A DNA stretch of 64,000 nt from Spirochaetia bacterium (GCA_963675665.1 OY776510.1:3872001-3936000); one strand, 5' to 3'. Shown: positions 30,059-51,891, numbered from the stretch's first letter. Numbers and translations are program-made. The notes: generated by a model not told the origin, from the letters alone.

Positions 30059-30108
30059 CCGTCATGGACGGAGGGCGTATGCTGAGGCTGTATATTTGCT
30101 TGTTATGT
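30059..30108 (-). repeat. Internally deleted attC plus cassette-leader relic
   Basis: CCGTCATGGACGG leader hairpin fused through GGGC to GTATGCTGAGGCTGTATATTTGCTTGTTA, which is homologous to 34694-34722. Confidence 0.7.
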
Positions 30109-30148
30109 CATTTTGAATATCAATTATTACCAGGGCTTTTTTCTGCAT
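30102..30148 (-). pseudogene. 5' remnant (16 codons) of an isochorismatase/cysteine hydrolase gene
   Basis: MQKKALVIIDIQNDIT contains the ALxxIDxQND motif. It is divergent from the WYL gene and is cut exactly at TAAC|attC sequence. Confidence 0.65.
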
Positions 30149-30246
30149 AGTGTTTACTCTTTACTGGCAGATTTATATGTTTACTTTGATATTATACCAG
30201 CAATTATTGACAACAGTATAGCAACATTTCATAATAAGGCGATCAG

Positions 30247-31179
30247 ATGAAAATTGACAGGCTTGTAAGCATAATTTTGATACTCCTTGATAAAAAGCGT
30301 ATAGGCGCACAGGAATTGGCGGACATGTTTGAAGTGTCACCCCGCACAATCTACCGTGATATAGACTCTATCAACATGGCGGGTATTCCCGTTCGGTCAA
30401 CAGCAGGCGTGGGCGGCGGCTTTGAAATCATGGAGAAATACAAGATTGACAAAAAGGTTTTTTCGGCTGCCGACCTTTCAGCAATCCTGATGGGGCTTTC
30501 CGGTCTTTCGAATATGATACGTGGTGATGAACTGGTAAACGCCCTTGCGAAAGTCAAGAGCTTTATCCCGGCCGACAGAGCGAATGACATCGAATTAAAA
30601 GTTAATCAAATACATATAGATTTAAGTCCGTGGATGAGCAACAGAAACATACAACCATATTTTGACATTATCAAAACAGCCTTACAGGAAAGCAGACTGC
30701 TTTCATTTGAATATACAGACCGCTACGGGAATAAAACCGCACGAACAGCAGAACCATATCAGCTCGTATTGAAAAGCAGTCATTGGTATTGGCAAGGGTA
30801 TTGCCGTAAAAGAAATGATTTTCGCTTATTCAAACTGTCCCGCACATTAAACCTGCAAATACAAGAGGAAATATTTACGCCGCGTGATTATCAAAAACCG
30901 CAGCTGGAGTTTTCCGACACCCTGGAAACCATGCAGACAAGAATTAAAATTCGTATTCATAAATCCGTCATGGACAGGGTACTTGATTATTGCGCTTACG
31001 AACACTTAACTCCGTACGGTGATGAGCACTACATTGTCAGTTTTCCTTTCATAGAGAACGACTACTACTACAATATTCTTTTCAGCTTCGGGGATAAATG
31101 CGAGTGCCTGGAACCGTTACATATCCGCACGGAAATGAAGCGCAGAATACATAATATGGCTGCCATATACGAAGGCTAA
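30247..31179 (+). CDS. YafY family HTH-WYL transcriptional regulator
   Basis: AQELADMFEVSPRTIYRDI, G.GGG, EPYQL, WYWQGYC..RNDFRLFKLSR. Confidence 0.95.
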   Translation: MKIDRLVSIILILLDKKRIGAQELADMFEVSPRTIYRDIDSINMAGIPVRSTAGVGGGFEIMEKYKIDKKVFSAADLSAILMGLSGLSNMIRGDELVNALAKVKSFIPADRANDIELKVNQIHIDLSPWMSNRNIQPYFDIIKTALQESRLLSFEYTDRYGNKTARTAEPYQLVLKSSHWYWQGYCRKRNDFRLFKLSRTLNLQIQEEIFTPRDYQKPQLEFSDTLETMQTRIKIRIHKSVMDRVLDYCAYEHLTPYGDEHYIVSFPFIENDYYYNILFSFGDKCECLEPLHIRTEMKRRIHNMAAIYEG

Positions 31180-31327
31180 GAAAATCCGGGGACGGGATAT
31201 TTTTACAGCGGCCGTCAAAAAGTTCCGGCGATATCAGGGCTGACAAACAGACTTTTCATAGATCATCCATCTGAAAAACCTTGATGCATTTATTATAAAG
31301 GCATATCATATTTTCAGGGAGAATGTT

Positions 31328-32878
31328 ATGATAACAATAACCCTTCTTGTTTTAATCATGTTTATATTTTCAGTTCCGGAAATTGGTGCTGATGACGGCA
31401 GCTGGAATACCTCATTCTCAGTACAGGGCGGAAGCATCTACAGTGAGACTGATCATCCGGAAATAATCCTTGAAAAGGAACTGCTTGTATTTGACGGGAA
31501 AAAGACTGCCGCAATCTTTCAGTTCAGAAATACTTCTGCCCGCACAATTACGGTAGACTGCGGATTCCCGGTCAGACATGAAATAGATACAATAGATTAC
31601 GGCGACTATCTGGAAGTTCTTTCAGGGGGCTACGGCGGCGGTGTAATAAAAGCGCTTGAGTGGCTTGAAACGGAAGATATCATCGATCCTGAAGGAATTG
31701 AACCTCCCGGTACAGCCATATTACTGAATGACTACAATAACACCCGCGAGTTTATCGGGCCCGAAGATATATCGGCAGAAATCGATTTTTCAATATCACA
31801 GGACGGTAATCAGGTAAAAATCCGGAACCTGCTTCTGGAACGTCATGCTTCAAGACTCGTTGCTGCGGTGACCTACCATTTCCGCCATAACCTGGTTTTT
31901 CCTCCCGGTGCAGTTTCGACAGTCCGGGTTGATTATACTCAGGATCTTGTTTCCGGCGGCGACAACATGAGCAATTCATACCGTTGGGATTATGTAATCG
32001 GGACCGGTTCGACATGGAAAGGCCCAATCGGATCATTTCTTCTGGCGGTCCCCGCAGATTGGGACGGTGAGACACCTGGTCTTGAAAAGCTTATCGGTAC
32101 AGACGGATTCAATGTATTCGGGGCCCGCGACTATGAACCGGCCCGCATCGAAACCTTCAGGTTTTATTCCTGGGATATGGATTACATGAGTCTCTATATC
32201 TTTCGTGAAGAAACTTTTCCCGCAATGAAAAAAATGTGGCAGACCGGTTCAAGAGAGGTCATGCAGGAAATCAGACCCGTACAGGAGTTTGTCCGGACTG
32301 TTTCCGCGTCATCATTTATCCGTGATCGTATCAATGTATATTGCGCGGACGGCGTGGTAGATCGCGCCGGATTCGATCCTGTCGCCGCTTTTGACGGTCT
32401 GGACGAAACCTCATGGTGCGAGGGGGCCCCGGACGACGGGATTGGCGAATACCTTGAGTGCGTATTGACTGAGCCTGTGTGGGCACTGACGATTAAAAAC
32501 GGTTTTACCCGATTCGCGGCTGAAAACTGGATGTTCGAATACGGAGATTTCGATGAATATATAAAAGACGACAGTCTCGGCCTTAAGGATTACTACAGAA
32601 TGAACAATCGCGTAAAAACCCTTGAGATATCATCTTCAGGCGGGGAACCCGTGTACACGCTCGAATTGGCCGACAGGCGGGATTCACAGACTTTCAGCGG
32701 TATTTTTCTGGAACCGGGCACATGGCGTTTCACAATTCGTTCCGTATATCCGGGGTCGAAGTGGAAAGATACATGTCTTGCGGAATTACGCTTTGTCGAA
32801 AAGCCCTCGGTAAAAACTTTCAAAACATACCTGGATGACACATTCTTTCGGAAACACCTTGCGGGTTTCAGATATTAA
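31328..32878 (+). CDS. Exported protein with DUF4424-like N-terminus and discoidin/NADase-type glycan-binding C-terminal domain
   Basis: Signal peptide; YVIGTGSTWKGPI; AFDG..ETSWCEG..DGIGE, NNRVK, VYPGSKWKDTCLAE. Confidence 0.7.
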   Translation: MITITLLVLIMFIFSVPEIGADDGSWNTSFSVQGGSIYSETDHPEIILEKELLVFDGKKTAAIFQFRNTSARTITVDCGFPVRHEIDTIDYGDYLEVLSGGYGGGVIKALEWLETEDIIDPEGIEPPGTAILLNDYNNTREFIGPEDISAEIDFSISQDGNQVKIRNLLLERHASRLVAAVTYHFRHNLVFPPGAVSTVRVDYTQDLVSGGDNMSNSYRWDYVIGTGSTWKGPIGSFLLAVPADWDGETPGLEKLIGTDGFNVFGARDYEPARIETFRFYSWDMDYMSLYIFREETFPAMKKMWQTGSREVMQEIRPVQEFVRTVSASSFIRDRINVYCADGVVDRAGFDPVAAFDGLDETSWCEGAPDDGIGEYLECVLTEPVWALTIKNGFTRFAAENWMFEYGDFDEYIKDDSLGLKDYYRMNNRVKTLEISSSGGEPVYTLELADRRDSQTFSGIFLEPGTWRFTIRSVYPGSKWKDTCLAELRFVEKPSVKTFKTYLDDTFFRKHLAGFRY

Positions 32879-33301: not shown

Positions 33302-34498
33302 TGTCCTGCAGAGGCGGAAGCCGACGTAGTTGCCGCGAAGCGACGGATTGAAGACTTCCCGGGAGGCACAACACAAATATTCACTTGAATCTTCCCAGTT
33401 ACAGCCACGGCCCACACGGTAACCGCCACTTTCTGGTCCCGACGGATCTGTTTCAGACCCGCCGCTGTAGGCAGCATGCCAATCATAACACCATTCATAC
33501 ACATTGCCGCTCATATCCCGCAATCCCAAAGCATTGGCGGTTTTCAAGCCTGCTTCTTTGGTGCCAAAAGTCGGATCTCCACTGCTTCCACTATTGTTGC
33601 CGGAGTACCAGGCATAGTCGCTTATTTTATCAGGGTCTGTTTCATCGGTGTACACAGGACCGCCGCTTACATGATCTCCGCCGTTCCAGTTTGTACCGTC
33701 AATGTACCTTGCTGCGTACTCCCATTCTGCTTCGGTGGGCAATCGGTAACCGTTCTTGCTCCAGTCCACATACACAGCAGCACTGCTTGCAGCATCGGCC
33801 TTGGTATAGTCTGTGGTCAATCCGGCATCGGAATAATAAACCTGTTCAGTATCGGTTATGCTGTCATCCGCCTGGGTCAGGAGATTGCAGAACGCCGCCG
33901 CGTCATACCAATTCACGTAGTAGGCTGGATACTCAGCTCCCGCACCATATCCACTTCCGTCCGGGTCCGTCCCCGGCCAGGTGGTCAACCATACATCTTC
34001 CCATAAGCCCTGGGTAACCTCGGTTTCACCCATCCAGAAGTTTTTGGTTAACGTAACTTCCTGAGTTGTGCTTTCCACATCCTCGCCCATGGTAAAAGTG
34101 CCTCCGGAAGGCACATAGTGCATGTTGAAGTTGGCTGCATTGGCGGTGTGTAATATGGCAGCCCCTGCAATATATGAAAAGGTTGCCGTAACTTCCACTG
34201 CCGATGCGGGCATGGTAAAGGTTGCCGTGCCGCCGTCGCTGCTTATCGTTGCCGGGCTGATGCTGACCCCTGATGCACTTAACGCAACCTGCCGGCCGCT
34301 GTTAAGCGATGCTGTCAGGGTTACAGTGGCCCCCTCTGCTGCCTCGGATACATCGGCATTTAAAGATTCTCCTGATTCCGCTCCACTGGGGCTTACTGTT
34401 ACCGCGTAGGTTGTGGGTGTAGGATCATTCGGTGTGGGACATCCTGCTAAAAGCAGGATTCCTGCAATTGCAATCGCTGCTAGAATAATTTTTTTCAT
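33293..34498 (-). CDS. DGR target lipoprotein: bacterial repeat domain plus FGE-sulfatase/CLec domain with C-terminal VR (TvpA-like architecture)
   Basis: Lipobox LAGC; FTMG, ETEVTQ, YRLPTEAEWEYAAR, N.LGL.DMSGNVYEWC, GFRLC. Confidence 0.92.
   Translation of the reverse strand: MKKIILAAIAIAGILLLAGCPTPNDPTPTTYAVTVSPSGAESGESLNADVSEAAEGATVTLTASLNSGRQVALSASGVSISPATISSDGGTATFTMPASAVEVTATFSYIAGAAILHTANAANFNMHYVPSGGTFTMGEDVESTTQEVTLTKNFWMGETEVTQGLWEDVWLTTWPGTDPDGSGYGAGAEYPAYYVNWYDAAAFCNLLTQADDSITDTEQVYYSDAGLTTDYTKADAASSAAVYVDWSKNGYRLPTEAEWEYAARYIDGTNWNGGDHVSGGPVYTDETDPDKISDYAWYSGNNSGSSGDPTFGTKEAGLKTANALGLRDMSGNVYEWCYDWHAAYSGGSETDPSGPESGGYRVGRGCNWEDSSEYLCCASREVFNPSLRGNYVGFRLCRTAD
33306..33427 (-). 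repeat. DGR variable repeat (VR)
   Basis: 3' end of the target gene; shares the terminal GCTTCCGCCTCTGCAG with the TR. Confidence 0.93.
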
Positions 34499-34577
34499 CT
34501 CTTCCTCCAATTATTATTTCAATTGGCGGCCACGGATAGCCGCCTCTTTATGGACTGTTTTTAGGGCGTGGTATTTC

Positions 34578-34725
34578 CGCTAACGCGCCAGGAATATGCG
34601 AAGTTGAAGTGAAGCCAAAGGAGTGTTTTGCCAATGAGCAAAACCGACTGCCCCTGCTCTGCTTCTCAGCAAGCTTCAATTTGGGTGTAGGCCGTATGGC
34701 CGAGCCGCATATTTGCTTGTTAGAT
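34578..34725 (-). repeat. attC-like site 1
   Basis: Minus strand ATCTAAC...GTTAGCG; inner arms AATATGCG/CGCATATT; homologous to sites 2-4. Confidence 0.85.
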
Positions 34726-34881
34726 GCCGTTTCTTTCATGGTTGATTTATAGTGTTTTTGTCAAATACATGGATGTATTTGACACCATAATTAGTTTCAA
34801 AACTTTTGTCCTTAGTCAGAACTTAATGCTCCCTTTATCTCAGATATAAGCTCACCAATCTTTGTCTTTTCCTCTTCTGAT

Positions 34882-36089
34882 TGTTTAGTGAGAGTATTTC
34901 CCTGACACTCACCCCGAAAAATATATAATTTCATTATGCGGCAGTGCCGCCATTGTCCTCGTCTTTTTCTACTTCCTCAAGGAATACCTGAAAGGGTATT
35001 CTACCCTTCATATTGCGTCCTTGATGTGCTCGTTCATTATTGTAGTACTCCAGAAACTTATCCAGATCTTCCTGCATCTCAGATAATGATTCGTAATATT
35101 TTTCACGACCTTTAATTCTAAAATGCTCATCAAGTAAAGTTCTGTGAAGCCGCTCAACAAATCCATTACTTTGCGGTCTGCAGACCTTTGTTGTCCTATG
35201 CTCTATATCTTCAAGCTGAAGGAATAATTCGAAAGGATGATGGTCCGGTCTTCCGCAGTACTCACGTCCATTGTCGGTAAGCACATTCTTAACCTTCACA
35301 TTATGTTCCTCGAAAAAAGGCAGAACATCATTATTTATTACCTGAACTGCAGTCACCGGCAGCTTATTTGTATACAGCCTTCCCCAGGCATGACGACTAT
35401 GACAATCAATCACTGTTTGTAAATATATTTTCCCTATTCCTTTCAGATGTCCGACCATAAAGGTATCTATCGAAACGAGATAACCAGTATGCTTTGTTTC
35501 GATGTGTCTCTCTCTGAACTCAGGATTAAATCTTTCAAGTAGTTTTATCTGGTCATCATTAAGCTTGAATTTTTTGTTCTTCAATTTTTCTTCCAAGCGT
35601 AAAAGTCGCTGGTGGCGGGTTTCCATTTTATGTCTAACCCATACTCCACGGACCCCGCCGGAGCTTACATTCACACCCTTCAAAGCAAGCTGCTGAGAAA
35701 CTCTCAGACAACCATGAGTTGGGAACTCCAAACTATAATCCAGAATCTCTTTTTCAATTTCAGGTGCTACTCGATTTGGATGTGGATTCCGTGGTCCTGG
35801 TAAGCTGTCGATTAATCCCTGAGATCCGTAGGTTTGATAATTACGTCTTATCTCATAAAATTGCTGCCGGGAATAACCCATAATTCGACATGCCTTACTT
35901 ACATTTCCTAAATCTTCTGCAAGCTCTAACATACTCATCTTTCGTCTCGCAGCTTTCTGTGCTACAGTCTTGTTGGTGGCCATTTGCTCCTCCTGATAAA
36001 TGTTTTTGTGGTGAAATCATTATATCTTTCGGAGGTGTTTTGGCCACCTATTTTTTAGCCAACTGTCAGGTTAATACGATCACTGTTCA
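34882..36089 (-). mobile_element. IS481 family insertion sequence
   Basis: Imperfect 26-bp TIRs TGTTTAGTGAGAGTATTTCCCTGACA / TGAACAGTGATCGTATTAACCTGACA, flanked by the TTCTGAT direct repeat (34875-34881, 36090-36096). Confidence 0.92.
34934..35983 (-). CDS. IS481 family transposase
   Basis: N-terminal HTH LGNVSKAC; DDE integrase core (IDT, LTDNGREY, NGFVER). Confidence 0.95.
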   Translation of the reverse strand: MATNKTVAQKAARRKMSMLELAEDLGNVSKACRIMGYSRQQFYEIRRNYQTYGSQGLIDSLPGPRNPHPNRVAPEIEKEILDYSLEFPTHGCLRVSQQLALKGVNVSSGGVRGVWVRHKMETRHQRLLRLEEKLKNKKFKLNDDQIKLLERFNPEFRERHIETKHTGYLVSIDTFMVGHLKGIGKIYLQTVIDCHSRHAWGRLYTNKLPVTAVQVINNDVLPFFEEHNVKVKNVLTDNGREYCGRPDHHPFELFLQLEDIEHRTTKVCRPQSNGFVERLHRTLLDEHFRIKGREKYYESLSEMQEDLDKFLEYYNNERAHQGRNMKGRIPFQVFLEEVEKDEDNGGTAA

Positions 36090-36251: not shown

Positions 36252-38570
36252 TTACCCCCTGAAACTTTTAAGATTATATTTTTTTACTCTTTTTTTTATA
36301 GATGGTTTGCCACCGTCTGTAATTTCTGCAATATAATCAACTACACTTTTTGAGTTTATTTTACCTTCTAGAGCTTCTGAACGAATTATTATTTTTTCTG
36401 CACTTTCACACAAAATAATATTCTGAGCATCTCCTAACATTGGAATTGTAGCATTATGAGATACAAGTATAATTTGTTTTTTACTTTTAATATTTTTTAT
36501 TGCTTTTATTAATCCAACATTAATGTAATTTGTTGCTAAATTATCTTCTGGTTGATCAATAATTAATGGTGCAGTGTCACCTAAATATCCCAATATGAGA
36601 TCCAAAATAACTGATGTTTTCCATCCTGCACTTAATTCTTCAAAATTTTTACCTGAAGCGGTAGTGATACGATATTTTATCTTATTAAGTTTATCAAATT
36701 CATGATATATCTTTGATTTGAAATCATCATATGATTGTATTTTAGGATTTTGTTTTCGAAATTTATCAATATATAAATTTTCTGGACTGATTTCTTTAAA
36801 AGAATTAATTCGATTATTTGCTTTCAAATATATATTTAAGACTTCTAAAAACTTATCTTTCGTAAGTTGAAAATCATTTTCAATGAATAATTCATGATCC
36901 ATAACTTTTTCTTTTTCAGTTTTACATTTTATAGAGTATTTGGATATTTTTTCTAATGTATTATAAAAAATATCTAGTTGCCTTTTGTATTCAGATACTT
37001 TATTTATTAATCTTTCAAAATCCAATTTTTTACTTTGGTGTTTTTGATTTTCTAAACTTAGATTTCTATCAAATTCTTCTTTATAATCATTTATCTTTCC
37101 TCGAATGATATTCTCACTTATAGATATATTATATGCTTTTAAAAGCTTCTCTTCTAACTCATTAAAAATTGATTCGTCAATTTCAATAAATGGATTTTCC
37201 TCAATAAAACTTTTTATAGAAGTAAGATTATTCAAATGCTTTTGGTAAGTTAATTCTGGATATTCAATCTTTCTGATTGTATTGGAACTTGGAAGTAAAA
37301 GGGAAAAAACATTATGTTTGATTTTTTCAGTTAATACCAACCTAGAAATTACTGGAATTTGTTTAAAATCATGCTGTATGCTTTCAATATTCTCAATAGA
37401 ATCTATTAATGAATCTAGATCCTGTTTTAATCCTATTAAAGCGTCTCTTACCTTAGCAATAATCTCAGTATTCCCTGGAAAAACTTTTTTTATTATTGGG
37501 ATATCATCAATATCTTTTTTGCTATTTTCATGTATTAATTGAATTATATAATTTTGATCAATATAATGAGGAACTAAGCCTGACGGGTTCCTAATCTCTA
37601 TATCATTAACAGAAAATTTTTCATAAATTATATTTATTTCACTATTATTAAGCTTTCTAAACACTGAATCAACAAATAATGTCTTTCCACTAGAAGAACC
37701 ACCAATAACAACATTTAAGCCAGGAGAAAGCATAACATCTATATCAATAAATTCATTATTTAGCTTCACTTCACTTATAAATTCAGACCAGTGTTGGGGA
37801 GGTTCTTTAGAATATACCATTCTTGAGGATTCTGACAAAGCTAATCTTAAACCACTAAATGTTGGTTGTGAATAAATCCACGTAGGAATAAATTCACTTG
37901 CATTTGGATCCTTAGCGCTAGGATAATTACTTGGATTATAATTATCTGTACAAGTAACTAAATTTATGAACTCTCTAATACCAAGCCTATCAAAATATTC
38001 CAATGTATCTTGTAAGCCCCTTTCATTTCTTGCAGTAAATCCATCGAATTGATTGTAATAGATATTTCTTTCTAATATTGAATCATATCTGACACCAGTT
38101 TCAGTTGATATAGACTTATGAAATTGTTTATGATTTTGACCACCATGTGGTAGTAGTATAAAATCATAATTATCAAAGTTTCTAATTATTGTTTCAATAT
38201 TTAATTTAAAATCATCATCACCATCAATTATCTTATTTGGATACAAATTATCCAATATTTCATTTATATCATCTATTTCTGCTTCTGTAATATTATCTAT
38301 ATTGAAAAATATATGGCAATGATATAGAGGCTTGTTATCATAATTAAAAATGTGCAATTCTACACCTAAAACAACGTTTTTTGTTTTTTCTAATAATTTC
38401 ATATATGCAAGCTTATTTATCGTATTATGATCTGTTAAAGATATTAGAAAATCCGAATTTGCTGACACTTCAGATATTTTTGATAAAAGTAAATCTACAT
38501 TATATTCTTCATTAAGCTGATTAGGATTCTCTGAAGTGTGAATATGTAAATCTGTATAAATAGGTTTCAC
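36252..38570 (-). CDS. PHP phosphoesterase-ABC ATPase fusion (Ppl/TrlF-like candidate defence protein)
   Basis: DLHIHT, LTDHN, GVE, HCH; Walker A GGSSSGKT; LSAGWK; IIDQPEDNL; VSHN. Very AT-rich. Confidence 0.85.
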   Translation of the reverse strand: MKPIYTDLHIHTSENPNQLNEEYNVDLLLSKISEVSANSDFLISLTDHNTINKLAYMKLLEKTKNVVLGVELHIFNYDNKPLYHCHIFFNIDNITEAEIDDINEILDNLYPNKIIDGDDDFKLNIETIIRNFDNYDFILLPHGGQNHKQFHKSISTETGVRYDSILERNIYYNQFDGFTARNERGLQDTLEYFDRLGIREFINLVTCTDNYNPSNYPSAKDPNASEFIPTWIYSQPTFSGLRLALSESSRMVYSKEPPQHWSEFISEVKLNNEFIDIDVMLSPGLNVVIGGSSSGKTLFVDSVFRKLNNSEINIIYEKFSVNDIEIRNPSGLVPHYIDQNYIIQLIHENSKKDIDDIPIIKKVFPGNTEIIAKVRDALIGLKQDLDSLIDSIENIESIQHDFKQIPVISRLVLTEKIKHNVFSLLLPSSNTIRKIEYPELTYQKHLNNLTSIKSFIEENPFIEIDESIFNELEEKLLKAYNISISENIIRGKINDYKEEFDRNLSLENQKHQSKKLDFERLINKVSEYKRQLDIFYNTLEKISKYSIKCKTEKEKVMDHELFIENDFQLTKDKFLEVLNIYLKANNRINSFKEISPENLYIDKFRKQNPKIQSYDDFKSKIYHEFDKLNKIKYRITTASGKNFEELSAGWKTSVILDLILGYLGDTAPLIIDQPEDNLATNYINVGLIKAIKNIKSKKQIILVSHNATIPMLGDAQNIILCESAEKIIIRSEALEGKINSKSVVDYIAEITDGGKPSIKKRVKKYNLKSFRG

Positions 38571-38752
38571 ATAAGACTCCTTTATACTATATTTTTAATA
38601 ATCTAATTCAAGCCTCTTTCTTGCACGCCATGGACGGCGGGCTCTTACTTAAACACTCCCAACCATTAAAGAAATTGCCTATAACGTTCCGGGCATATGC
38701 GAAGTTGAAGCGCAGCCAAAGGAGTGTTTTGCCGTAAGCGGTAATTCTTCCC

Positions 38753-40285: not shown

Positions 40286-40323
40286 AAATAAATTTTAACA
40301 TGATTAAATTCCGGTGTGAAGCA

Positions 40324-40961: not shown

Positions 40962-41195
40962 TTCATTCCTCCGTGATTCTTTTCCCGGAGGATAGTACAT
41001 TTTCAGATTTTCGCAAGAAGGAAAGAATTACCGCTTACGTTTTGCCAAAGAGCAAAACCGACTGTCTTGTTCAACTTCTTCGCAAGCTTCAATTTGGACG
41101 AAGGGCGAATGCCCGTAGTCGCATATGCCCTGTTATAAGCTGTGTTTCCGCTCTTCGACCAGGCCGCACGGCGGAGTCAAGGTCTGGTCTCTTCA

Positions 41196-44100
41196 TTATC
41201 GCTCCCCTTTTTTATCTACGCTTATATTTTCAATTCTATGTATTTCTAGCATTTCAATCCCAAATTCTTCACATATTTGCTGTTTATATTTGAAATCTTC
41301 AATTTCAAACATATATAAATATTTTCGAACTGTCTGTGATAACACATTTTTGGCTAAGGGATTGTGATCCAAATCTTTATTTAATCGTCTTAGTAAAGCT
41401 ATAGGAAATTTAATAAAATGATCTACTTTTATTACAGCATCAATTAATCTGTATGCTGTAGATTGATTAACCTTCAATAATCTTTCAAAAGTCACTGATA
41501 GATTTTCTGAACCAACAAATTGTGAAACTCTAGATATAAAAGTATAAGTAAGGATCGAGCAAATTCTTGAAAGATAAGCTATTGCATAAGCTTCAACAAT
41601 TTCACGATCTTCAGTATCGTATACGGGTTGAGTTTGCATGATCTTACTTATCTCAGTAGCTATCTTCTCAGGATTTTCCATAATTGATCTTAATATTAAA
41701 CCAAGAGGTTTTAATAGAAGAAGATAAGTATTTTCTACCAATTTTAATTTTTCATCTCCTTCTAATGATGCATAAGAATTTTTAACAACTTGTCCAATTA
41801 TTTCAGCCAACTTTATCGAATAGGATATTTTATCAACAATTGTAAGCTCTTCTTCAATATCAATACAACCATCACAATCCTCTTCCTTTTTTTCCTTATC
41901 TTCTATTTCATCTCTTTGCTTTAAGTCTGAGTTTCTAGCATCTTCAACATTAATATGATTTAAAACCAATTTAGGCATCTCATTGTAGATTTTATTTAGC
42001 TTTTTAATATCATCATCAAGTCTTATAGGCTCTTCTTCACTAAATAATAAAGTTGCGGCATTTAATAATGAATCAATAATAATTGGATCTTTACTCAAAT
42101 AAGACAGAAACATCAAAATATTTGAATAATTTTCATTGTGTGGTTTTGATGCCATATTTGAAATTGTCTCTTTGATTTTTGTCTTAGATATTTTATCTGA
42201 CATATATTTTGCTGTAAAAAAGAAGAACATATATTTATATGCAAAAAAGTAACGACCATCTTTATGTAATAATACTTCTGACTGAAGAGTTTCTTTCAAT
42301 ATTGTATCAATTCTATTTTGAATATCATGTCTCTCTGCATGGTCGTAACAGAAGCTCTCAAAATCAAGATCATCCAAATACTTATGGTCGTTATTAAACA
42401 TTGTAAACGCAAGAGAAGATAAAAAATTATTAAATGCATTAATTGCTTCTGGAGATGGATTACTATTTTTCAATGAATCTAAAATTAATGTCTGATAATA
42501 ATAACCATATGAACTCTGATGAAAATTAGTAGGATCGATTTCTGTGATATTTTGTAATAGTACTAGAATAATCAATGGATATGAAGGAGTTAAATTTTTA
42601 CCAACTATTTTATTTATAATATCTGTAACATTATCTAATTCTCTTAAATGTTCATTTATACTGTTATAAGGATCATTATTCAAGGAATACCATTTTTTAA
42701 TTAATAAGGATCGTCTAAAATTCCCAAATTCTTTAATTTGGAATAGTTTAAATCCATTGTATATAATTGAAGCCTCTGGCTCACTTCCTGTTAATTCTTC
42801 AATCTCTAATAGATCATGTGAAGTGAGTACGATATTTATAAAAATATCCTTAAGAGAATCCATATATTTCCTTCTGAATCTCCTAGGAATACTGGATTCA
42901 TCAAAATCATCAATCAATATAACTTTCTTATCATTATCGATTGTATCGAATTCACTTTCCTTTATATTTTTATATTGTAATAAAGCTTCTCTTCTAATTA
43001 GCGATTGGAGCTCTTTATTATTTGTAGATTTAATTTTAGCTCCATCTATCCAAATCGGCATATACCCATCATGCAACAATGTACGATAGAGCTTTTTTAA
43101 TACTGTGGTTCTACCACTTCGACCTTGCCCTAAAATTATGTATTTCGAACCTGTCTTTTTATTAAAATTGAGTGCATTCTCACTATTAATAACTGAAGAT
43201 TCATAAGATACTCTTTTTAGCGGATCTGGATTCAAATGATGAAAATCTGGATATACAAATATATCATCTAATTTTAAATTAGTTATTTGTGGATGATGTA
43301 AATTTGCCCCTATATCATTAATAAAATTCTTTATCTCTGCTTTTAAAGATAAATAACTTTCATTTTGTCTGGGAATAATAAGAGATATTTGTTCATCATC
43401 AACATTATTTTTAATAAGTTCGCCCTCTTTTATATCAAGTATATATTTTTCGAGCTTATAATTTCCTTCACTATTTTTCTCTATGAGATATGAATAAAAA
43501 GCATTATCTTTAGAATCTAAGAAACTGCTTCCATCAGAATAATATGTAATTTGAGATTTTTCATTGCTTCTCATACTACTTCCTAACCAATGCTCATGGC
43601 CAGTTAAAACAATATTTGAACAACTTTCAATATAATCTCTTAATCTCTTAGAACTCCAAGATTTAAACCAATTTAAAGGGTGATGCATTAAAGTTATTGA
43701 AATACCATTGCTAGGTTGCATATATTCTGATATCAGTTGCTCTGGCAGAATTATCTTTCCTTGTACCTCCGGGTTCGAAGTCATCCAAGCACTATTTATA
43801 GAAAATATATTTAATACATTATCATCAACATTAATGTTTTTTTTCCATATTATTTGGTTGTCTAGAAATGCTCCCGACATAGAATTAAATTCATTAATAA
43901 AGTCAAAAAAAGATCGTTGAGGTTCCGTACATATTTCAATTGTTTCATTATCAAGTTCTTCACTATCATCTTCATTACTTATAATATCACGTATCAATCT
44001 TTCTCTTAGTTTATTTTTTTTCTCAAAATAACAATCATGATTACCGGGAACAATAATTATTTCAGCTCTCGGTTTTCTTAGTTTATTATATTCGTCAAGT

Positions 44101-44303
44101 AAATCAGATAATAAAATATAGGCATTCAAATAACCATCAATATTACTTTGATTAGAAATATCACCAGTGATTAATAGAAGAACTAAATCACATGAATCTG
44201 CCAAATTTTTAGTAACTGTAAAAATATTGTTAAAATATGATTTCAATTCATCAGTTATTTCTCCGATATGCAAATCACTTAAATGCAAAATTAAATACTT
44301 CAT
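41196..44303 (-). CDS. Metallophosphoesterase-STAND/NACHT-like NTPase fusion (candidate defence protein)
   Basis: LHLSDLH, ITGD, PGNHD, HHP, GHEH; P-loop GQGRSGRT; Walker B VILIDD; long helical C-terminus. Confidence 0.85.
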   Translation of the reverse strand: MKYLILHLSDLHIGEITDELKSYFNNIFTVTKNLADSCDLVLLLITGDISNQSNIDGYLNAYILLSDLLDEYNKLRKPRAEIIIVPGNHDCYFEKKNKLRERLIRDIISNEDDSEELDNETIEICTEPQRSFFDFINEFNSMSGAFLDNQIIWKKNINVDDNVLNIFSINSAWMTSNPEVQGKIILPEQLISEYMQPSNGISITLMHHPLNWFKSWSSKRLRDYIESCSNIVLTGHEHWLGSSMRSNEKSQITYYSDGSSFLDSKDNAFYSYLIEKNSEGNYKLEKYILDIKEGELIKNNVDDEQISLIIPRQNESYLSLKAEIKNFINDIGANLHHPQITNLKLDDIFVYPDFHHLNPDPLKRVSYESSVINSENALNFNKKTGSKYIILGQGRSGRTTVLKKLYRTLLHDGYMPIWIDGAKIKSTNNKELQSLIRREALLQYKNIKESEFDTIDNDKKVILIDDFDESSIPRRFRRKYMDSLKDIFINIVLTSHDLLEIEELTGSEPEASIIYNGFKLFQIKEFGNFRRSLLIKKWYSLNNDPYNSINEHLRELDNVTDIINKIVGKNLTPSYPLIILVLLQNITEIDPTNFHQSSYGYYYQTLILDSLKNSNPSPEAINAFNNFLSSLAFTMFNNDHKYLDDLDFESFCYDHAERHDIQNRIDTILKETLQSEVLLHKDGRYFFAYKYMFFFFTAKYMSDKISKTKIKETISNMASKPHNENYSNILMFLSYLSKDPIIIDSLLNAATLLFSEEEPIRLDDDIKKLNKIYNEMPKLVLNHINVEDARNSDLKQRDEIEDKEKKEEDCDGCIDIEEELTIVDKISYSIKLAEIIGQVVKNSYASLEGDEKLKLVENTYLLLLKPLGLILRSIMENPEKIATEISKIMQTQPVYDTEDREIVEAYAIAYLSRICSILTYTFISRVSQFVGSENLSVTFERLLKVNQSTAYRLIDAVIKVDHFIKFPIALLRRLNKDLDHNPLAKNVLSQTVRKYLYMFEIEDFKYKQQICEEFGIEMLEIHRIENISVDKKGER

Positions 44304-44383
44304 ATGCACTCCATATACATTCTTTATTCTTCATCGCCCGTCGGCCGGAGGTCCGGGCGTCTTCCTCTTAGCGGAAACATTGC

Positions 44384-44532
44384 TTATAACGTTCCCAGCA
44401 TAACCGAAGTTGAAGCGCTACCAAAGGAGTGTTTTGCCATAGAGCAAAACCGACTGACCATGCTCTGCTACTTTCGCAAGCTTCAATTTGGGTGGAGGCC
44501 GAATGGCCGGAACCGGTTATGGTGTGTTAGAT
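44384..44532 (-). repeat. attC-like site 3
   Basis: Minus strand ATCTAAC...GTTATAA; arms CATAACCG/CGGTTATG. Confidence 0.87.
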
Positions 44533-44659
44533 GCCGTTTCTGTCTTGGTTGGTTCTATGATGAATTTGTCAAATACAAGGATGTATTTGACAGAGCAATT
44601 GATTTCATAATTTTTTACTTTCTCCCCCTTTAAGGAATATGATACTAGGTCGTATCTCT

Positions 44660-46819
44660 TCAAGATGTTATAGCTTTTACATCATTATATAAAACACATA
44701 GGTGTTTATCTGACATGTCTATTATAGGTTCAAACATAAATGAATTAACATGGATATTCTCTGGAGTCATCAAATTAACTCTTTCTAATATCTTTGTATT
44801 CTCATTATCATCAACAAATTTTCTTTTAAATTCTTTAAATAGTTTACCAGTTTGGTTTTTTTTAATTCTACTAACAAAATCTCTATCATCTATTTTATTT
44901 ATCATAAAATCTTCAGCAAAAATGCGAATAGCCATGGATAAAACTATTTTTTTTTCTAAACAAAACCCAGATGAATCATCACTATTCACATATACTTCTG
45001 CAGTTTCACAAATAATATCTTGTATATTTTTATTATCATCTAAATCAAATTTGAATTCTATATCATTAAAAAATGATTCATAAATTTCTTTGATTTTACC
45101 AACAGTGATATTCTCACTATTTTCTTTTATATGTAATACTGAAGTTAAATCGCTAAAAATACTATTATTTCCAGTATATTCCGATAAATTCCTTGTAAAA
45201 GGTATTGATGCTATAAGCTTACTTGCATTGTCTAAATTCTTTTTCCAGAAAATAAACGGATTTGCAATATATGAATATTTTAATTTTTCAAGTTTGATAT
45301 TTCCTTCATCTCGCTCAGCAATATAAGAGCACATATATCGGTTCATTCCGATTCTGTCTTGTATCGTTCTAAAAAAATCATAATTATGCGTTAGAATAAT
45401 CATATAAAAATCATGATAATTACAAATATCTTTTAAGTATTCAATTATTGCGTATTTATTCTTATAATCAAATGAATCTGCAATATCATCTACAATAATT
45501 AAGTTTTCTGTACCTTTCTTTTTTCTTGATTCTATTTCAAAGATAATATTTAGCAGATATAGTGTTCTTCTTTCTCCTTGACTTAGTATTTTAATTAATA
45601 CGTCTTCATCAATTGGTTTATTTCCATGATAATTATATTTAATACTAGGGGCTACATCTTGAAGAACTGTTTCATCTTTATTCTCTATCTCTATATTATA
45701 GGGAACATAAAAGCGTCTATTAAATATATCTAATACTTTTTCCCAATCGGTTTTTTCTTCTTTTGCAGTTTCTACAACTTCTCTAATTTTTTCTTTATTC
45801 GTTCTGTATATATCAATTATTTCAGTATATTCAATTATCTTTTCAAAAATAAATGATAATACTACTTTTCTCTTAAATTCTTCAGGTTCACCTAATTCAG
45901 TAATTATTTCTTGATTTTCAAATAAGTATTCTCTAAGCGTTCTTAATTGTGCATTTGAAACTTTTTTATCAATTTTTTCAAATAGCTTTGAAATATCTTC
46001 ATCTTCTAATATTCTTTCTTTCTCTTCTTTAATAATCTCACTAAATGTCTCTTGATCGGAGATTTCTGTTTTATCACCATTATTATTTAAATTTATAGAA
46101 TGTTCTGCTTTAAAGAAACCATTGTCTGTTAATTGTTTATGGACTGTTGTTGCATTATAATGATTAAAATCTTTCTTCAAATATGTTGAATCTTGGATTA
46201 GCTGGTCATATCTATTTATATATTCACCTATTTCAGATTTAACAGATTTAATAAAATCAAAATTCTTTTGCTCGAATAAAATACCATAGTCGATAATGTC
46301 ATTATTGATTAAATTGTCTTTTTTGATTTCTGTTTCAAGTGTTAAAAGTAATTCTAAAAAATTATCATTATTAAACGTTTTCTCAATTTCATCAGTAATA
46401 TTTGCAGTTCTTTTTAATTTGAATAATGGTGTTATTGCTTCAATAAATTTTTCTTTCCCCTTATTGATATCCTCATATAATGCTTCATAAATTGATCTTA
46501 ATTCTTCATTAACAAGCAAGACTGTCATAGCATCTGATTTATAAGTTCTATCATAGGGATTAATTACAAAAACTTTATTAAAATCAATAATATTGTTTGA
46601 TTCATCTACAATAGTACGTAATGATTCCTTATCATTGTAAACTTCATCCTTACTATTATTACCTTTTGAAAAATCATCAAATGTTCTTGAAAAAGATGTT
46701 TTCATTACACCATTAGGAGCATATATAACATATACATTTTTATTATCGCTAAAATCAAATTCAAATTCTAAATCTTCAATTCCATAACAGTTCTTAAAAT
46801 CAATTTTTAATTTCTCCAC
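44660..46819 (-). CDS. ABC/SMC-like coiled-coil ATPase (AAA_13/RloC-like architecture; candidate defence protein)
   Basis: APNGVMKTS, long coiled coil, LSQGERR, IIVDDIADSFDYKNK, LTHN. Confidence 0.8.
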   Translation of the reverse strand: MEKLKIDFKNCYGIEDLEFEFDFSDNKNVYVIYAPNGVMKTSFSRTFDDFSKGNNSKDEVYNDKESLRTIVDESNNIIDFNKVFVINPYDRTYKSDAMTVLLVNEELRSIYEALYEDINKGKEKFIEAITPLFKLKRTANITDEIEKTFNNDNFLELLLTLETEIKKDNLINNDIIDYGILFEQKNFDFIKSVKSEIGEYINRYDQLIQDSTYLKKDFNHYNATTVHKQLTDNGFFKAEHSINLNNNGDKTEISDQETFSEIIKEEKERILEDEDISKLFEKIDKKVSNAQLRTLREYLFENQEIITELGEPEEFKRKVVLSFIFEKIIEYTEIIDIYRTNKEKIREVVETAKEEKTDWEKVLDIFNRRFYVPYNIEIENKDETVLQDVAPSIKYNYHGNKPIDEDVLIKILSQGERRTLYLLNIIFEIESRKKKGTENLIIVDDIADSFDYKNKYAIIEYLKDICNYHDFYMIILTHNYDFFRTIQDRIGMNRYMCSYIAERDEGNIKLEKLKYSYIANPFIFWKKNLDNASKLIASIPFTRNLSEYTGNNSIFSDLTSVLHIKENSENITVGKIKEIYESFFNDIEFKFDLDDNKNIQDIICETAEVYVNSDDSSGFCLEKKIVLSMAIRIFAEDFMINKIDDRDFVSRIKKNQTGKLFKEFKRKFVDDNENTKILERVNLMTPENIHVNSFMFEPIIDMSDKHLCVLYNDVKAITS

Positions 46820-46958
46820 AGTTTCCTTCTCTTATAATTATTTTTCCTTAATATTTAAAAATCAGCAGATTTACCAATAATATTATTCAATCCTTCTTCA
46901 TACCCGCCACGGACGGCGGGCTCTTCCTTAAACAATCCCAACCAAGACAGAAATTGCC

Positions 46959-47105
46959 ATCTAACGGCCCGGGTTAAGCGAAGCTGATGCGCAACTTAAG
47001 GAGTGTTTTGCGAATGCGCAAAACCGACTGGCCCTGCTCTACTTCTTCGTCAGCTTCAGTTTGGGTGGAGGCCGAATGGCCGGAACCGCTTAACCATTGT
47101 TAGAT
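46959..47105 (-). repeat. attC-like site 4
   Basis: Minus strand ATCTAAC...GTTAGAT; arms GGTTAAGCG/CGCTTAACC. Confidence 0.87.
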
Positions 47106-47336
47106 GCCGTTTCTTGGTTGGTTGAAGAATAAATTGGCAAAATACACGGATGTATTTTGCAACACAACCAATTTATTAATATTTCACTTCTCTTTCTCTA
47201 TCCAGAATCATGAATATAGATTTTGACTACTCCAAAACCTTTGTTAAATGTCTGTTTTACCTGACCGCACGGCGGAGCCAAGGTCTGGCTCTAATTTTAA
47301 AAATATATTTCTTATTGCTTTTTACAACACATAATA

Positions 47337-47680
47337 CTATAAGTTCTCAATTATTCGTTCAATTTCATAATCAATCAATCCTGATTTTAAATGAATATTG
47401 TTTTCTGATATATAATTCAAGATAGCATCTTCACTGATAGATTCTGGAATTAATGGCTCCATTTCCCTAATTGCTGAACTAGGAATACTAAATTCTGAGA
47501 GAATTGATGTATTTGTATTTTTGTATTTCATGGATAACACAAAGCCATTTTGGAACCTTATATTTAAACCATTTTTTTGATTACATTAAAAACAAATTGT
47601 ATTGATTCATTGATAATAACTATATAGAAATCCAAAATCAGATCAGGATTTTGGGTTATATCTTTGAACTTTTTGAGTTT
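47337..47680 (-). pseudogene. 3' remnant of an AT-rich cassette ORF with a homopolymer frameshift
   Basis: Reading continues upstream of the 67-aa ORF if the A7 run at ~47572-47578 were A8. No start codon; followed by a type B trailer. Confidence 0.45.
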
Positions 47681-47885: not shown

Positions 47886-48701
47886 CTACTCAACAATTTT
47901 TAATTCTTTTAATATTTGCAGCATTACTGTTTTTGCTTCACCATATTTACCCGGAAAATCAGATTTATTTTTTTCAAGATTTGTAGAAATAAAATAGACA
48001 TTGCTATTTGTCTCGATATATCCTACAAACCAGCTATAATAAACATTATCAAGCCTCATAACCGTTCCGGTTTTTCCTGATAATTTATAATTTTCATTTT
48101 CATCTAATGCTAAAAGCTCTTTTACTATATTCTGCGATCTCTTTGAAAATGGCAAATCCAATGAGTATAATTTCTTTATAAGTTCAATTTGCTCCATTGC
48201 AGATATTTTCATATTTCCTTCTAACCAGAAGATATCCACTCCGGAATCAATATTCTGATTACCGTAATTTAATTTATCCAGATATTCCTGCATTCGCTCA
48301 AACCCGATCCGCCTTGCAATTTCCTGATAATACCAGACTACAGAGCTTTTCATTGCACTTTCTAGGGTTTGATTTTTATTCCAGGATTTAAATTCATATT
48401 CTGTTCTATCCCATTCAATTTGATAATCTTTGTCAGAGGCAACTCCTGATTCCAAGGCAATGAGTGAATTATAAATTTTAAATGTGGAGGCCGGCAAAAT
48501 ACCCGATTCAGCCAAGTCTTCGTTATAAATAGAATATATTTTTTTATTTTGATCATAGATTATTATGCAACCCTGAGAATCAATTGCCTCAAAATATTCT
48601 CCAAAATCTTGAACCACAATTTTTTTTCCACTTTGACAACTTGTAGTCAGCATGATGAAGCCAAGTGAAATAATGATTAATATTGATTTATACTTTTTCA
48701 T
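47886..48701 (-). CDS. Class D beta-lactamase (OXA-like) or BlaR-sensor-like lipoprotein
   Basis: PASTFK, SVV, YGN, FWL, KTG motifs; lipobox TTSC. Confidence 0.88.
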   Translation of the reverse strand: MKKYKSILIIISLGFIMLTTSCQSGKKIVVQDFGEYFEAIDSQGCIIIYDQNKKIYSIYNEDLAESGILPASTFKIYNSLIALESGVASDKDYQIEWDRTEYEFKSWNKNQTLESAMKSSVVWYYQEIARRIGFERMQEYLDKLNYGNQNIDSGVDIFWLEGNMKISAMEQIELIKKLYSLDLPFSKRSQNIVKELLALDENENYKLSGKTGTVMRLDNVYYSWFVGYIETNSNVYFISTNLEKNKSDFPGKYGEAKTVMLQILKELKIVE

Positions 48702-49717: not shown

Positions 49718-49749
49718 GAAGACTGAATTTTCTATATAGATCTTCGGAT

Positions 49750-50673: not shown

Positions 50674-50819
50674 ATTAAAAGCTGTTATATGTCAATTACC
50701 ACTTTATAAATTTTATATTTCTCATAGCCCGTCGGCCGGAGGCCCGGGCTATTTCTTCCTTATTTTACACCCATCAACGCTATATTTCTAACATTTATAT
50801 TTTTTCTCTATTTTCGTGC

Positions 50820-50965
50820 ATTTAACGACGATTTCAGCTGCGCACTCGATCCTGGAGCAGAGCGGAAGGAATTGGCGCGGTTTTAGAGTGTAGCGAGATC
50901 AGCGCGAAACGTCTCTGCTAAAACCGAGACAATAGACGGCGACTGCTGCATTTGTCATGTCATAC
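50820..50965 (-). repeat. attC-like site 5 (different sequence family)
   Basis: Minus strand CCGTATGAC...GTTAAATG, 146 nt, with CGGTTTTAG/CTAAAACCG arms. Its inner box complements GTTATACGG at 51781-51789. Confidence 0.7.
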
Positions 50966-51022
50966 GGATTTTTTCTTTCTATCTTTATATCTCCTTAAAT
51001 TTGTGACTTTTCTATTATATAA

Positions 51023-51640
51023 TTATTTAATCTTTTTCACTATATAATCAATATATACTTGTCGGATAAATTCACCTTCAAACATTCTTTCCAGAATTCT
51101 TTTTTCTTTGATTATCAATTTCATATCTTTAAAATATCTATCTGCTTCTATATCTTCATGAAACACGTGTATCACTTTATCATTATCCTCTTCTTGTTCA
51201 AATTCCATATTCCCTAATTCAATTCCAATTCCACACATAAAATCATCGACCGATAAAAAGTTAAGAAAAAGTAATCCATTAGTCTTTAAAACTCTTTTTA
51301 TCTCTATTATTGATTCTTCAATATCTTCTTTTTTCATATGAAATATGGAATTATAGGAATAAACAGCATCAAATTCTTGATCAGAATAAGGTAACTTTTT
51401 CATATTCCCTTTTATAATATTTAGTTCTTGATCTCTCAATTTTGAAAATTCATATGCAGCGTCTATTTGTTTGTCATTATTTTCGATACCATAAGTATCA
51501 TATCCATATTCTTTAAACAAACTTAATGGCGGTTGATTGCCACCTGCACCACAATCTAATATTTTTTTGTCAGAACATTCACTATTACATATACTTAGAA
51601 ATCTATACAAAGGAATTTGTCTAAATACTTGTTTCATCAA
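51023..51640 (-). CDS. Class I SAM-dependent methyltransferase
   Basis: ILDCGAGG, GNMKKLPY....FDAV, IKRVLK.NG. Confidence 0.9.
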   Translation of the reverse strand: MMKQVFRQIPLYRFLSICNSECSDKKILDCGAGGNQPPLSLFKEYGYDTYGIENNDKQIDAAYEFSKLRDQELNIIKGNMKKLPYSDQEFDAVYSYNSIFHMKKEDIEESIIEIKRVLKTNGLLFLNFLSVDDFMCGIGIELGNMEFEQEEDNDKVIHVFHEDIEADRYFKDMKLIIKEKRILERMFEGEFIRQVYIDYIVKKIK

Positions 51641-51891
51641 TTAACCTCATTTTCTTATTACATATTTGAAATCATACATATATTTCATATTTATTAATTT
51701 TATCAACTATTTCACGAAGTCTGAATCACCCCTAAATGACCCACATATTTGTTACATTCCTTAAAGATGAATTTATAATTCCGTATAACATATTATGCTT
51801 AGTGTTTTACTTAAATACTATTAAATTCTTCTCCTGCCAGCCATGGATGGCAGGCTCTTCCTTAAAAAATCCCAACCAAGAAAGAAATTGC

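Follow-up and report, generated by a model that had tools for sequence, protein, structure and literature searches.

GGA-loop hairpins bracketing attC sites in a spirochaete cassette array: probable relatives of the TD-2 family with a strict orientation relative to genes

Introduction

In sedentary chromosomal integrons, of which the Vibrio VCRs are an example, each cassette carries one recombination site (attC), a long imperfect palindrome between RYYYAAC and GTTRRRY boxes, and the cassettes are co-oriented. REP/BIME, pneumococcal BOX and Neisseria Correia elements are multi-copy, modular intergenic palindromes that often lie at the 3' ends of genes and, where studied, affect mRNA stability or translation, and flagellin mRNAs are the classical targets of FliW-type CsrA. 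The CsrA consensus obtained by SELEX (systematic evolution of ligands by exponential enrichment) is given as RUACARGGAUGU in the available text (PMC4347634). The motifs TD-1 and TD-2 were described in 2007 as multi-copy elements and, in the accessible portion of that paper, from Treponema denticola only; a subset of TD-1 instances overlaps the reverse complement of TD-2, and the usual placement of TD-1 is a 5' regulatory configuration (Weinberg et al. 2007, PMC1950547). For TwoAYGGAY (RF01731), whose hairpins have AYGGAY loops, Csr/Rsm binding and a mobile-like spread have been proposed in the openly available part of the source (10.64898/2026.09.22.753630). Here we analyse a 64,000-nt stretch of a Spirochaetia genome (GCA_963675665.1, OY776510.1:3872001-3936000), called the window below and meaning the whole of that stretch, in which short hairpins with GGA in the loop stand on both sides of the attC sites of a cassette array.

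We found no description of TD-2-type hairpins flanking attC in the open literature on integron attC and CsrA, on the T. denticola integron, and on TD-1, TD-2 and TwoAYGGAY, a search that did not extend to subscription journals or preprint supplements. The accessible text of a paper on the T. denticola integron (PMC3607928) makes no mention of flanking hairpins.

Hairpins of the cassette junctions

The original prediction placed eight CANGGAY hairpins at cassette ends in this window. Seven of them are real (Table 1; positions are those of the window and the GGA is read on the + strand), and the site at 30059 is not: as an eighth hairpin it was rejected for its 3-nt loop, the location of its GGA within the stem and its lack of homology to the other leaders, and this palindrome overlaps the edge of a truncated attC half at 30065-30105 (73% identity to 34682-34722). 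All seven true hairpins have GGA on the + strand and the adjoining open reading frames (ORFs) on the - strand, and their placement at cassette ends, with the GGA strand being the bottom strand of attC, was borne out. It also holds that the stems vary and the loop is kept, since 18 distinct stem sequences were found among the 23 hairpins of a strict class (stems of 6 bp or more with either an NGGA loop closed by CA:TG or an ANGGAN or AGGAN loop closed by C:G or G:C) in the arrays of three genomes. The bare 7-mer CANGGAY was not enriched (56 found vs 50.7 +/- 7.9 expected), and the signal is therefore the hairpin together with its loop and not the word. The seven hairpins are homologous pieces of one repeated junction of ~300 nt and therefore do not represent eight independent events.

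The region from 33 to 54 kb of the window is an integron-type cassette array without an integrase and with its ORFs on the - strand. Each cassette has one imperfect palindrome between an RYYYAAC inverse core and a GTTRRRY core, and the ORFs are co-oriented. The type-1 attC sites are 147-149 nt long and run on the - strand from R'' ATCTAAC to R' GTTAGAT, GTTATAA or GTTAGCG, and some R' boxes (GTTAGCG, GTTATAG) depart from GTTRRRY. Strands were assigned from the ORF direction and from consistency with a second family of sites (type-2) adjoining the integron integrase (IntI) of the same genome, whose orientation makes the - strand the top and the + strand the bottom. On the + strand, a complete junction consists of a leader hairpin, 15-45 nt, one half of a 13-20-bp stem extension, the attC, the other half of the extension, 14-35 nt and a trailer hairpin, a pattern that was seen at 34.5, 38.6/41.1, 44.3 and 46.9 kb. 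At 51833-51898 (+), a leader hairpin is followed by the conserved linker and stem extension up to ATCTAAC, with the attC absent (an array break). Because the leader lies outside R', it is part of the next cassette, and the trailer is part of the cassette to which the attC belongs. Sequence conservation reaches ~75-100 nt past both R boxes and includes the two additional hairpins, and folding the junction as single-stranded DNA (ssDNA) gives a structure of three distinct domains (-55.9 kcal/mol on one strand and -57.5 on the other, z ~ -5.5).

Relation to TD-2

The seven hairpins are probably the outer hairpins of a TD-2-type unit, bracketing attC in the place where the unit has its middle hairpin. 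In the genome that carries the window (G000), the TD-2 model (Rfam RF03162, gathering score 48.7 bits) gave 33 matches at E<=0.01, of which 18 reach or exceed the gathering score and are bona fide members and none lies inside an array; 14 control genomes gave no matches. Long AT-rich hairpins with loops like those of the window number in the dozens in this genome and belong to such units. A dispersed unit has three hairpins in ~98 nt and lies between co-directional genes, with the consensus accgcc-AUGGAU-ggcggu, a middle hairpin and then an AT-rich ..gugc-ACGGAU-gcac.. hairpin. The leader of the window is of the GC-rich type and the trailer of the AT-rich type, and the order on the GGA (+) strand is identical: a GC-rich hairpin with an AYGGAN hexaloop stands 5' and an AT-rich (CA)NGGA(UG) hairpin 3', both on a single strand. 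A model built from 20 dispersed units aligns the trailer class T1 to its positions 68-87 and the leader class L1 to its positions 1-18, though only with chance-level scores.

The TD-2 model itself found nothing in the window at the gathering score and nothing at E<=10 over 29500-52500, and an Rfam scan of the window at E<=10 returned nothing relevant. The middle hairpin of TD-2 (GAGUUU...AAACUC) is missing from the junctions of the window, where the attC with its extended stem (46937-47121) fills the place. The junction as a whole is thus related to TD-2 but does not belong to the family, being sub-threshold and having its middle hairpin replaced.

The dispersed units have near-identical arms (AATGATAAAA...TTTTATCATT) round a core that is variable and always complementary. 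Tandem intergenic arrays of 2-6 TD-2 units, with a period of ~100-112 nt and two GGA-loop hairpins per unit, were also observed (Table 1). In a sample of the class, TD-2 had matches in 9 of the 151 genomes and in 3 of the 88 genera; two of these genera are in the window's own family, and the third has 2.8-Mb genomes that also carry IntI. At E<=1e-4, it was present in 7 of the 11 genomes of the family or order, with 3 to 25 matches per genome within the genus.

Orientation relative to genes

By crude ORF calls, 27 of the 33 TD-2 matches in G000 are opposite to both neighbouring genes, none has the direction of both, and 6 lie between convergent or divergent genes. Outside the arrays of this genome there are 105 strict-class hairpins, 78 intergenic and 27 inside crude ORFs. 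The intergenic ones are opposite to both neighbours in 59 cases, the same as both in 0 and mixed in 19, and of those inside ORFs, 16 are sense and 11 are antisense. The arrays of G000 and of two further genomes (G009, G003) hold 23 strict-class hairpins on the bottom strand vs 0 on the top. The strict class is about fourfold denser in the arrays of G000 (13 in 0.15 Mb) than elsewhere (105 in 5.0 Mb). Because the GGA-opposite polarity is the same in and out of the arrays, the 'antisense' placement is a family-wide rule in this genome. An orientation determined by replication was rejected, as + and - copies are interleaved along the chromosome and track the local gene direction.

These counts bear on the original prediction in two ways. 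Its suggestion that the hairpins are cassette-specific tags that license or regulate cassettes is not supported, because the same class occurs 105 times outside the arrays and TD-2 gives 33 matches; a known repeat family largely accounts for what had been taken for cassette-licensing CsrA tags. The opposite possibility, an ordinary dispersed repeat without strand bias, proved right as regards the genome-wide repeat but wrong as regards the strand, given ratios of 59:0 and 23:0.

Viewed on the sense strand, the AT-rich hairpin stands at the end of the upstream gene (gap -12 to +4) in 20 of the 33 TD-2 matches, and the GC-rich hairpin stands 0-30 nt 5' of the next ORF in about one third, with an AGGAGG-like tract between them in the cases read. 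In the window, the leader at 34525, viewed on the - strand, lies ~20 nt 5' of the GGAGG and ATG of an FGE-sulfatase-like ORF. Given this polarity, the RNA most surely made across the elements would be the gene-sense one, with UCC loops, and because the gene-sense strand carries UCC loops everywhere, we took the hairpins to act in cis on the sense transcript. We therefore favour, tentatively and with a probability of roughly 0.45, a reading from sequence in which the hairpins would be boundary structures of the sense transcript and each cassette would have its own 5' leader and 3' trailer. Cutting at R' would give a cassette with the leader ahead of the ribosome-binding site and the trailer behind the ORF, followed by the attC, and the transcript of such a cassette would show the UCC reading of the loops, as would the transcripts of the dispersed units genome-wide. 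The trailer, a 3' hairpin behind the ORF, might provide end protection or weak termination, and the leader, a 5' hairpin just 5' of the Shine-Dalgarno sequence (SD), would present a UCC or CCUCC loop complementary to SD-like GGA/GGAGG tracts. Intrinsic terminators on the sense strand were considered and rejected, as the hairpins are followed on the - strand by an A-run or purine tract and by no T-run.

Resemblance to CsrA sites

The exact match to the CsrA consensus claimed for one trailer was confirmed: 44573-44584 (ATACAAGGATGT) agrees with RUACARGGAUGU at 12/12 positions, and the other two trailers agree at 11/12. The GGA of the window's hairpins lies in the loop in an A(N)GGA or RUACARGGAUGU context, on the + strand only. 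The csrA gene of this genome is in a flagellin-like/fliW/csrA operon 19 kb from the window. In the 60 nt upstream of all three flagellin genes examined (G000:C1 3649681, 3844131, 3845247), there is a sense-strand hairpin of the CA-NGGA-UG type (GGGACA-AGGA-TGTTCC, GGGCA-TGGA-TGCCC and GAAGGCA-AGGGA-TGCCTTC), 16-25 nt 5' of the SD (AAGGAGG or ACGGAGG). This would constitute the two-site arrangement expected for FliW-type CsrA control. Given flagellin leaders of identical hairpin form, this CsrA would very likely bind T1 or L1 in vitro if they were presented as + strand RNA. Since the cassette mRNA strand reads UCC, the CsrA likeness matters only if the opposite strand is made as RNA.

An RNA of the GGA strand, in the TD-2 orientation and antisense to the cassettes, would offer two ANGGAN or CA-NGGA-UG hairpins per unit to one CsrA dimer, and the units would then be a decoy or sponge, or part of a CsrA-controlled antisense RNA. 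This would agree with the consensus match of the loops, with the presence of csrA, with the 3/3 flagellin leaders and with the tandem arrays of TD-2 units. The leaders at 34525, 46903 and 51833 are moreover the top three terminator-like sites on the + strand, and Csr/Rsm binding has been proposed, in the open part of the source, for the related TwoAYGGAY (10.64898/2026.09.22.753630). The polarity speaks the other way, because 59 of the 78 intergenic sites have the GGA strand opposite to the genes on both sides and none has it on the strand of both. In the matches whose GC-rich hairpin is only 0-30 nt away from the start of the next gene, the spacer leaves no room for a conserved GGA-strand promoter of its own, and the exact consensus word occurs genome-wide only 7 times, base composition predicting 2.9. 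The CsrA antagonist known from FliW-type systems is also a protein and not a small RNA. Based on these data, we consider CsrA sites on an antisense RNA unlikely.

The flagellin leaders suggest a different origin for the polarity. A TD-2 unit in reverse orientation would set a flagellin-like CsrA module before the next gene, its GC-rich hairpin standing at a flagellin-like distance from the SD, and selection against such copies, which would be repressed and then lost, would alone yield the observed orientation. The units would then be selfish palindromic repeats without host function that spread as DNA, and a cassette junction would carry, or would have absorbed, one of them. The high copy number, the near-identical arms round a variable complementary core, the tandem arrays, the patchy distribution in the class with its range of copy numbers across one genus, and the absence of G-U asymmetry between the strands are all consistent with this, as is the mobile-like expansion proposed for TwoAYGGAY in the accessible text (10.64898/2026.09.22.753630). 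Nevertheless, a search for Y1/RAYT transposases (PF01797) gave 0 matches in G000 with 6 of 14 control genomes positive, and no mobilising enzyme was identified; ends of the IS200/IS605 or RAYT type were rejected on the same ground. Retention of the loop on so many different stems requires selection acting on it, and the array variants are conserved beside attC across several assemblies. For these reasons, spread without function appears unlikely to us.

Variants confined to arrays and the recombinases

The hairpin class as such is dispersed; confinement to arrays applies only to particular variants, namely the T1 stem and L1 together with its flank. All 5 copies of the T1 stem (CAAATACANGGATGTATTTG) in G000 are in arrays. 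In a scan of species-representative genomes, the T1 20-mer was found at 59 loci, of which 11, in spirochaete-type assemblies, have T1 after a GTTA..TGC.GTTTC..TGGTTG attC edge as in the window, and these variants therefore travel with the attC family across species. A metagenome scan with the L1 flank returned 5 loci, 2 real (L107, L109) and 3 due to chance. At a twelfth of the 59 T1 loci (L092), the leader and half of the stem extension run straight into the trailer with no attC, representing either a deletion product or an empty junction.

The T1 20-mer was also observed in gamma-proteobacteria (among loci L047-L105). In Shewanella and relatives it lies in rRNA operon spacers, with the GGA reading antisense to rRNA in all 6 loci for which Rfam was consulted. 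The copies in Alteromonadales, Cellvibrionaceae and others adjoin tRNA genes, lying on the tRNA strand in 9 of 10 cases and within units of several GGA hairpins, and terminator-like hairpins follow the tRNA-linked units in the loci read (for example L057, L061, L083, L085). These elements matched no Rfam family, and no family of the Csr/Rsm kind was found on the gamma-proteobacterial loci; they may be relatives of TwoAYGGAY-type elements.

Two hairpin classes that were absent from the original prediction, L2 and T3, flank both attC families. In G000, all 15 copies of L2 (CGCCCG..GGCC-GGA-GGTC..CGGGCG), which lies after R', and all 9 copies of T3, which lies before R'', are in arrays, and the outer stems of both classes covary. 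The L2 leaders lie 2-20 nt 5' of the SD of the ORF and therefore have no space for a promoter of their own. We also observed that the attC stem runs 13-20 bp past the R''/R' boxes (CCAACCAAGACAGAAATTGC / GCCGTTTCT..TGGTTGG), with 44523-44552 behaving likewise with 51872-51901, and that stem extension and R box together form a duplex of ~27 bp, near the size of a dif-type Xer site. The extension half outside R' belongs to the next cassette and is therefore common to all cassettes of the class.

A bona fide IntI (392 bits vs a cut-off of 265) is encoded ~600 kb from the window and heads an array of ~108 kb with at least 50 type-2 attC sites. Pieces of type-1 junctions lie inside this array and one type-2 site lies inside that of the window, and the attC families therefore mix. 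A second recombinase, a tyrosine recombinase of 354 aa (G000:C1:3511201-3512262; L009:2201-3265, +), heads a co-directional cassette array at 3512.3-3531 kb that holds type-1, type-2 and a third type of attC. It has 32% identity to the IntI of this genome, is without the ~40-residue IntI-specific insertion and, at 190.8 bits, falls short of the IntI cut-off of 265 bits; the best model for it, XerA/'integron integrase', is matched exactly at the cut-off. Orthologs (53-63% identity) adjoin such arrays in G009 and G003; in G010 the ortholog is on a contig with TD-2 matches, and in G002 it lies ~14.5 kb from one weak attC-like match (E 6e-5).

The hairpins might act as ssDNA, folding on the bottom strand as accessory structures of the recombination site that aid its folding or protection, or help the integron integrase or the Xer-like recombinase adjoining such arrays to recognise it. 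All array copies are on the bottom strand (23/23 strict-class, 15/15 L2 and 9/9 T3), L2 and T3 are confined to arrays, and L2 has a bottom-strand G.T pair in 31 of 34 copies besides its covarying outer stem; the extended attC stem and the recombinase without the IntI-specific insertion beside arrays in G000, G009 and G003 point in the same direction. Against such a role, 105 hairpins of the TD-2 class lie away from any attC and have the identical gene-related polarity, which tracks the local gene direction and not the chromosome position. Most type-2 junctions are free of hairpins, the ~108-kb array having 10 L2, 6 T3 and 4 strict-class copies, and in G043, a T. denticola-like genome, the 60-kb array side of IntI is without such hairpins. 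An ssDNA role is better supported for L2 and T3 than for the hairpins first listed, and as an account of the whole set we find it improbable.

Weighing the sense-transcript reading

Several results count against boundary structures on the sense transcript. Under the model from 20 dispersed units, the window hairpins reach only 9.5-18.5 bits (E 0.1-8, chance level), and the polarity counts depend on crude ORF calls. A loop conserved over at least 18 stems points to a specific ligand, and CsrA, the only one known, recognises the opposite strand; we know of no reader of UCC loops. Over the 33 TD-2 units, there are 29 G-U pairs in the GGA reading vs 31 in the UCC reading, and with such similar counts and near-perfect Watson-Crick stems on both strands, the folded strand cannot be told. 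The array-bound classes fold better on the bottom strand (-14.6 vs -11.6 kcal/mol for L2 and -17.7 vs -11.9 kcal/mol for T3), and the G.T pair in the inner stem of L2 on the bottom strand corresponds to an A.C mismatch on the top, although, seen from the sense strand, the T of this pair is just as well explained as the A of an anti-SD-like ACCUCC loop. The cassette trailers lie 68-177 nt past the ORF, away from the stop codon. Finally, the polarity of TD-2 in G043 is mixed (n=23; 7 opposite to both neighbours, 3 the same, 11 mixed and 2 undetermined), and the array side of IntI there has no long AYGGAN hairpins over its 60 kb, so that the rule seen in G000 may not extend to TD-2 everywhere.

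A joint account can also be framed. The type-1 junction would be a TD-2 unit in which a recombination site arose from, or took the place of, the middle hairpin; dispersed units and junctions would be two states of one system that offers flagellin-leader-like hairpin pairs, as RNA or ssDNA, to the FliW-type CsrA; and cassettes, each with the kind of 5' leader and 3' trailer hairpin that marks the genes of this lineage, would have been built locally from native transcription units, possibly by the Xer-like recombinase found beside the sister arrays. We give this combination a low probability.

Other features of the region

The coordinates of the hairpins, attC sites and tandem TD-2 arrays are collected in Table 1. 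The array carries two insertion sequences. One, an IS66-family element at 38734-41038 with ORFs of 111, 114 and 510 aa and 20-nt inverted repeats at 38733-38752 and 41020-41039, lies within a type-1 attC; the contig piece that corresponds to it has ~5x the depth of its flanks, and the element is therefore present in several genome copies. The cargo includes a class D beta-lactamase-like ORF at 47886-48701 (-) (NF012161, 266 bits vs a cut-off of 250), a DS8 anti-phage protein (882 bits), a PDC-S46 candidate defence protein (816 bits) and a TrlF-like AAA ATPase, with cargo ORFs listed at 47886-48701, 41196-44309, 44660-46819 and 36252-38570 (all -), and further GNAT, cupin, methyltransferase and PD-(D/E)XK genes. 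The far end of the array has a third repeat (ATCTTCTTAATCCGTGAAATCAGTGGTTCAATAAC...) at 52788-52833, 53927-53972 and 54238-54283, each copy at the start of a small - strand ORF (one cupin, one GNAT and one other). Elsewhere in the window, a molybdenum/tungsten cofactor riboswitch (RF01055, 58.3 bits) lies at 5638-5757 (+), 5' of a 748-aa ORF.

Metagenome contigs from four runs were broken at the repeats over the array, with ambiguous joints, and cassette boundaries could not be read from them. In one marine run (X5), the summed depth was 58-529 at the attC bins 34328-34991, 40968-41631, 44288-44951 and 46944-47607 and the cassettes were hardly covered, and related attC sequences are therefore abundant in the other organisms of that sample.

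Table 1. Positions of hairpins, attC sites and tandem TD-2 arrays (window coordinates unless a chromosome is named).
Feature	Position	Strand	Details
Leader hairpin	34525-34544	+	GGCGGC-CACGGATA-GCCGCC, 6-bp stem, loop CACGGATA
Leader hairpin L1	38626-38639	+	CGCC-ATGGAC-GGCG, 4-bp stem, loop ATGGAC
Leader hairpin L1	46903-46920	+	CCCGCC-ACGGAC-GGCGGG, 6-bp stem, loop ACGGAC
Leader hairpin	51833-51854	+	CCTGCCA-GCCATGGA-TGGCAGG, 7-bp stem, loop GCCATGGA
Trailer hairpin T1	34759-34784	+	TGTCAAATACA-NGGA-TGTATTTGACA, 11-bp stem, loop TGGA
Trailer hairpin T1	44567-44592	+	TGTCAAATACA-NGGA-TGTATTTGACA, 11-bp stem, loop AGGA
Trailer hairpin T1	47137-47160	+	10-bp stem, loop CGGA
Palindrome outside the hairpin class	30059-30071	.	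CCGTC-ATG-GACGG
L2 leader hairpin	44335-44359	+	CGCCCG..GGCC-GGA-GGTC..CGGGCG
L2 leader hairpin	50726-50750	+	beside type-2 attC
T3 trailer hairpin	41157-41189	+	outer stem GACCAGGCC/GGTCTGGTC, inner CCGC-ACG-GCGG
T3 hairpin, solitary	47260-47288	+	
Type-1 attC, 148 nt	34578-34725	-	R'' ATCTAAC ... R' GTTAGCG
Type-1 attC interrupted by IS66-family element	38679-41138	-	element at about 38734-41038
Type-1 attC, 149 nt	44384-44532	-	
Type-1 attC (46959-47105) with stem extensions	46937-47121	-	46937-46958 pairs with 47106-47121
Type-2 attC	50819-50960	-	family that fills the integrase-linked array elsewhere in G000
Tandem TD-2 array	G000:C1 1652349-1652894		
Tandem TD-2 array	G000:C1 2973070-2973369		
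Tandem TD-2 array	G000:C1 836249-836456		
Tandem TD-2 array	G000:C1 4576606-4576751		

Comparison with known systems

The function of TD-2 and of AYGGAY loops, a question since 2007, gains three testable facts from this genome, namely the 59:0 polarity, the form shared with the flagellin leaders and the variant with attC in place of the middle hairpin. For the biology of integrons, the attC context is conserved far past the R boxes and each cassette comes with a 5' and a 3' hairpin of its own, which bears on the expression of promoterless cassettes and on the origin of cassettes; were the joint account of TD-2 and attC true, a trace of cassette birth would be visible here.

As in sedentary chromosomal integrons, the array of the window has the core sites, the palindrome and the co-oriented cassettes, but it differs in its conservation past the R boxes, its two extra hairpins, its extended stem and its lack of an integrase, a sister array abutting an Xer-like recombinase. 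With REP/BIME, BOX and Correia elements, the hairpins share their nature as multi-copy, structured, modular intergenic repeats, and they differ in having a conserved loop motif, a strict gene polarity and no RAYT-type transposase in the genome. TwoAYGGAY resembles them in its two AYGGAY-loop hairpins, its high and variable copy number and its association with repeats, and one tandem TD-2 array contains a weak match to it (29.5 bits vs a threshold of 43); its two hairpins stand on a common basal stem, however, it occurs in other taxa, and it has no match in the window. Predicted CsrA sites in the flagellin leaders have the same GGA loop closed by CA:UG as the window hairpins, but there the GGA is on the mRNA, whereas at cassette ends and in dispersed units it is opposite to the genes.

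The closest system remains TD-2, with which the window shares two hairpin types and the order in which they follow each other, 5' to 3', on the GGA strand. Where TD-2 has its middle hairpin, the window has an attC with an extended stem (~185 nt), and its T1 stems and linkers are specific to arrays. In the accessible portion of the 2007 paper, TD-2 is reported from T. denticola only (PMC1950547), and the present genome adds a second spirochaete family in which the elements keep a strict polarity.

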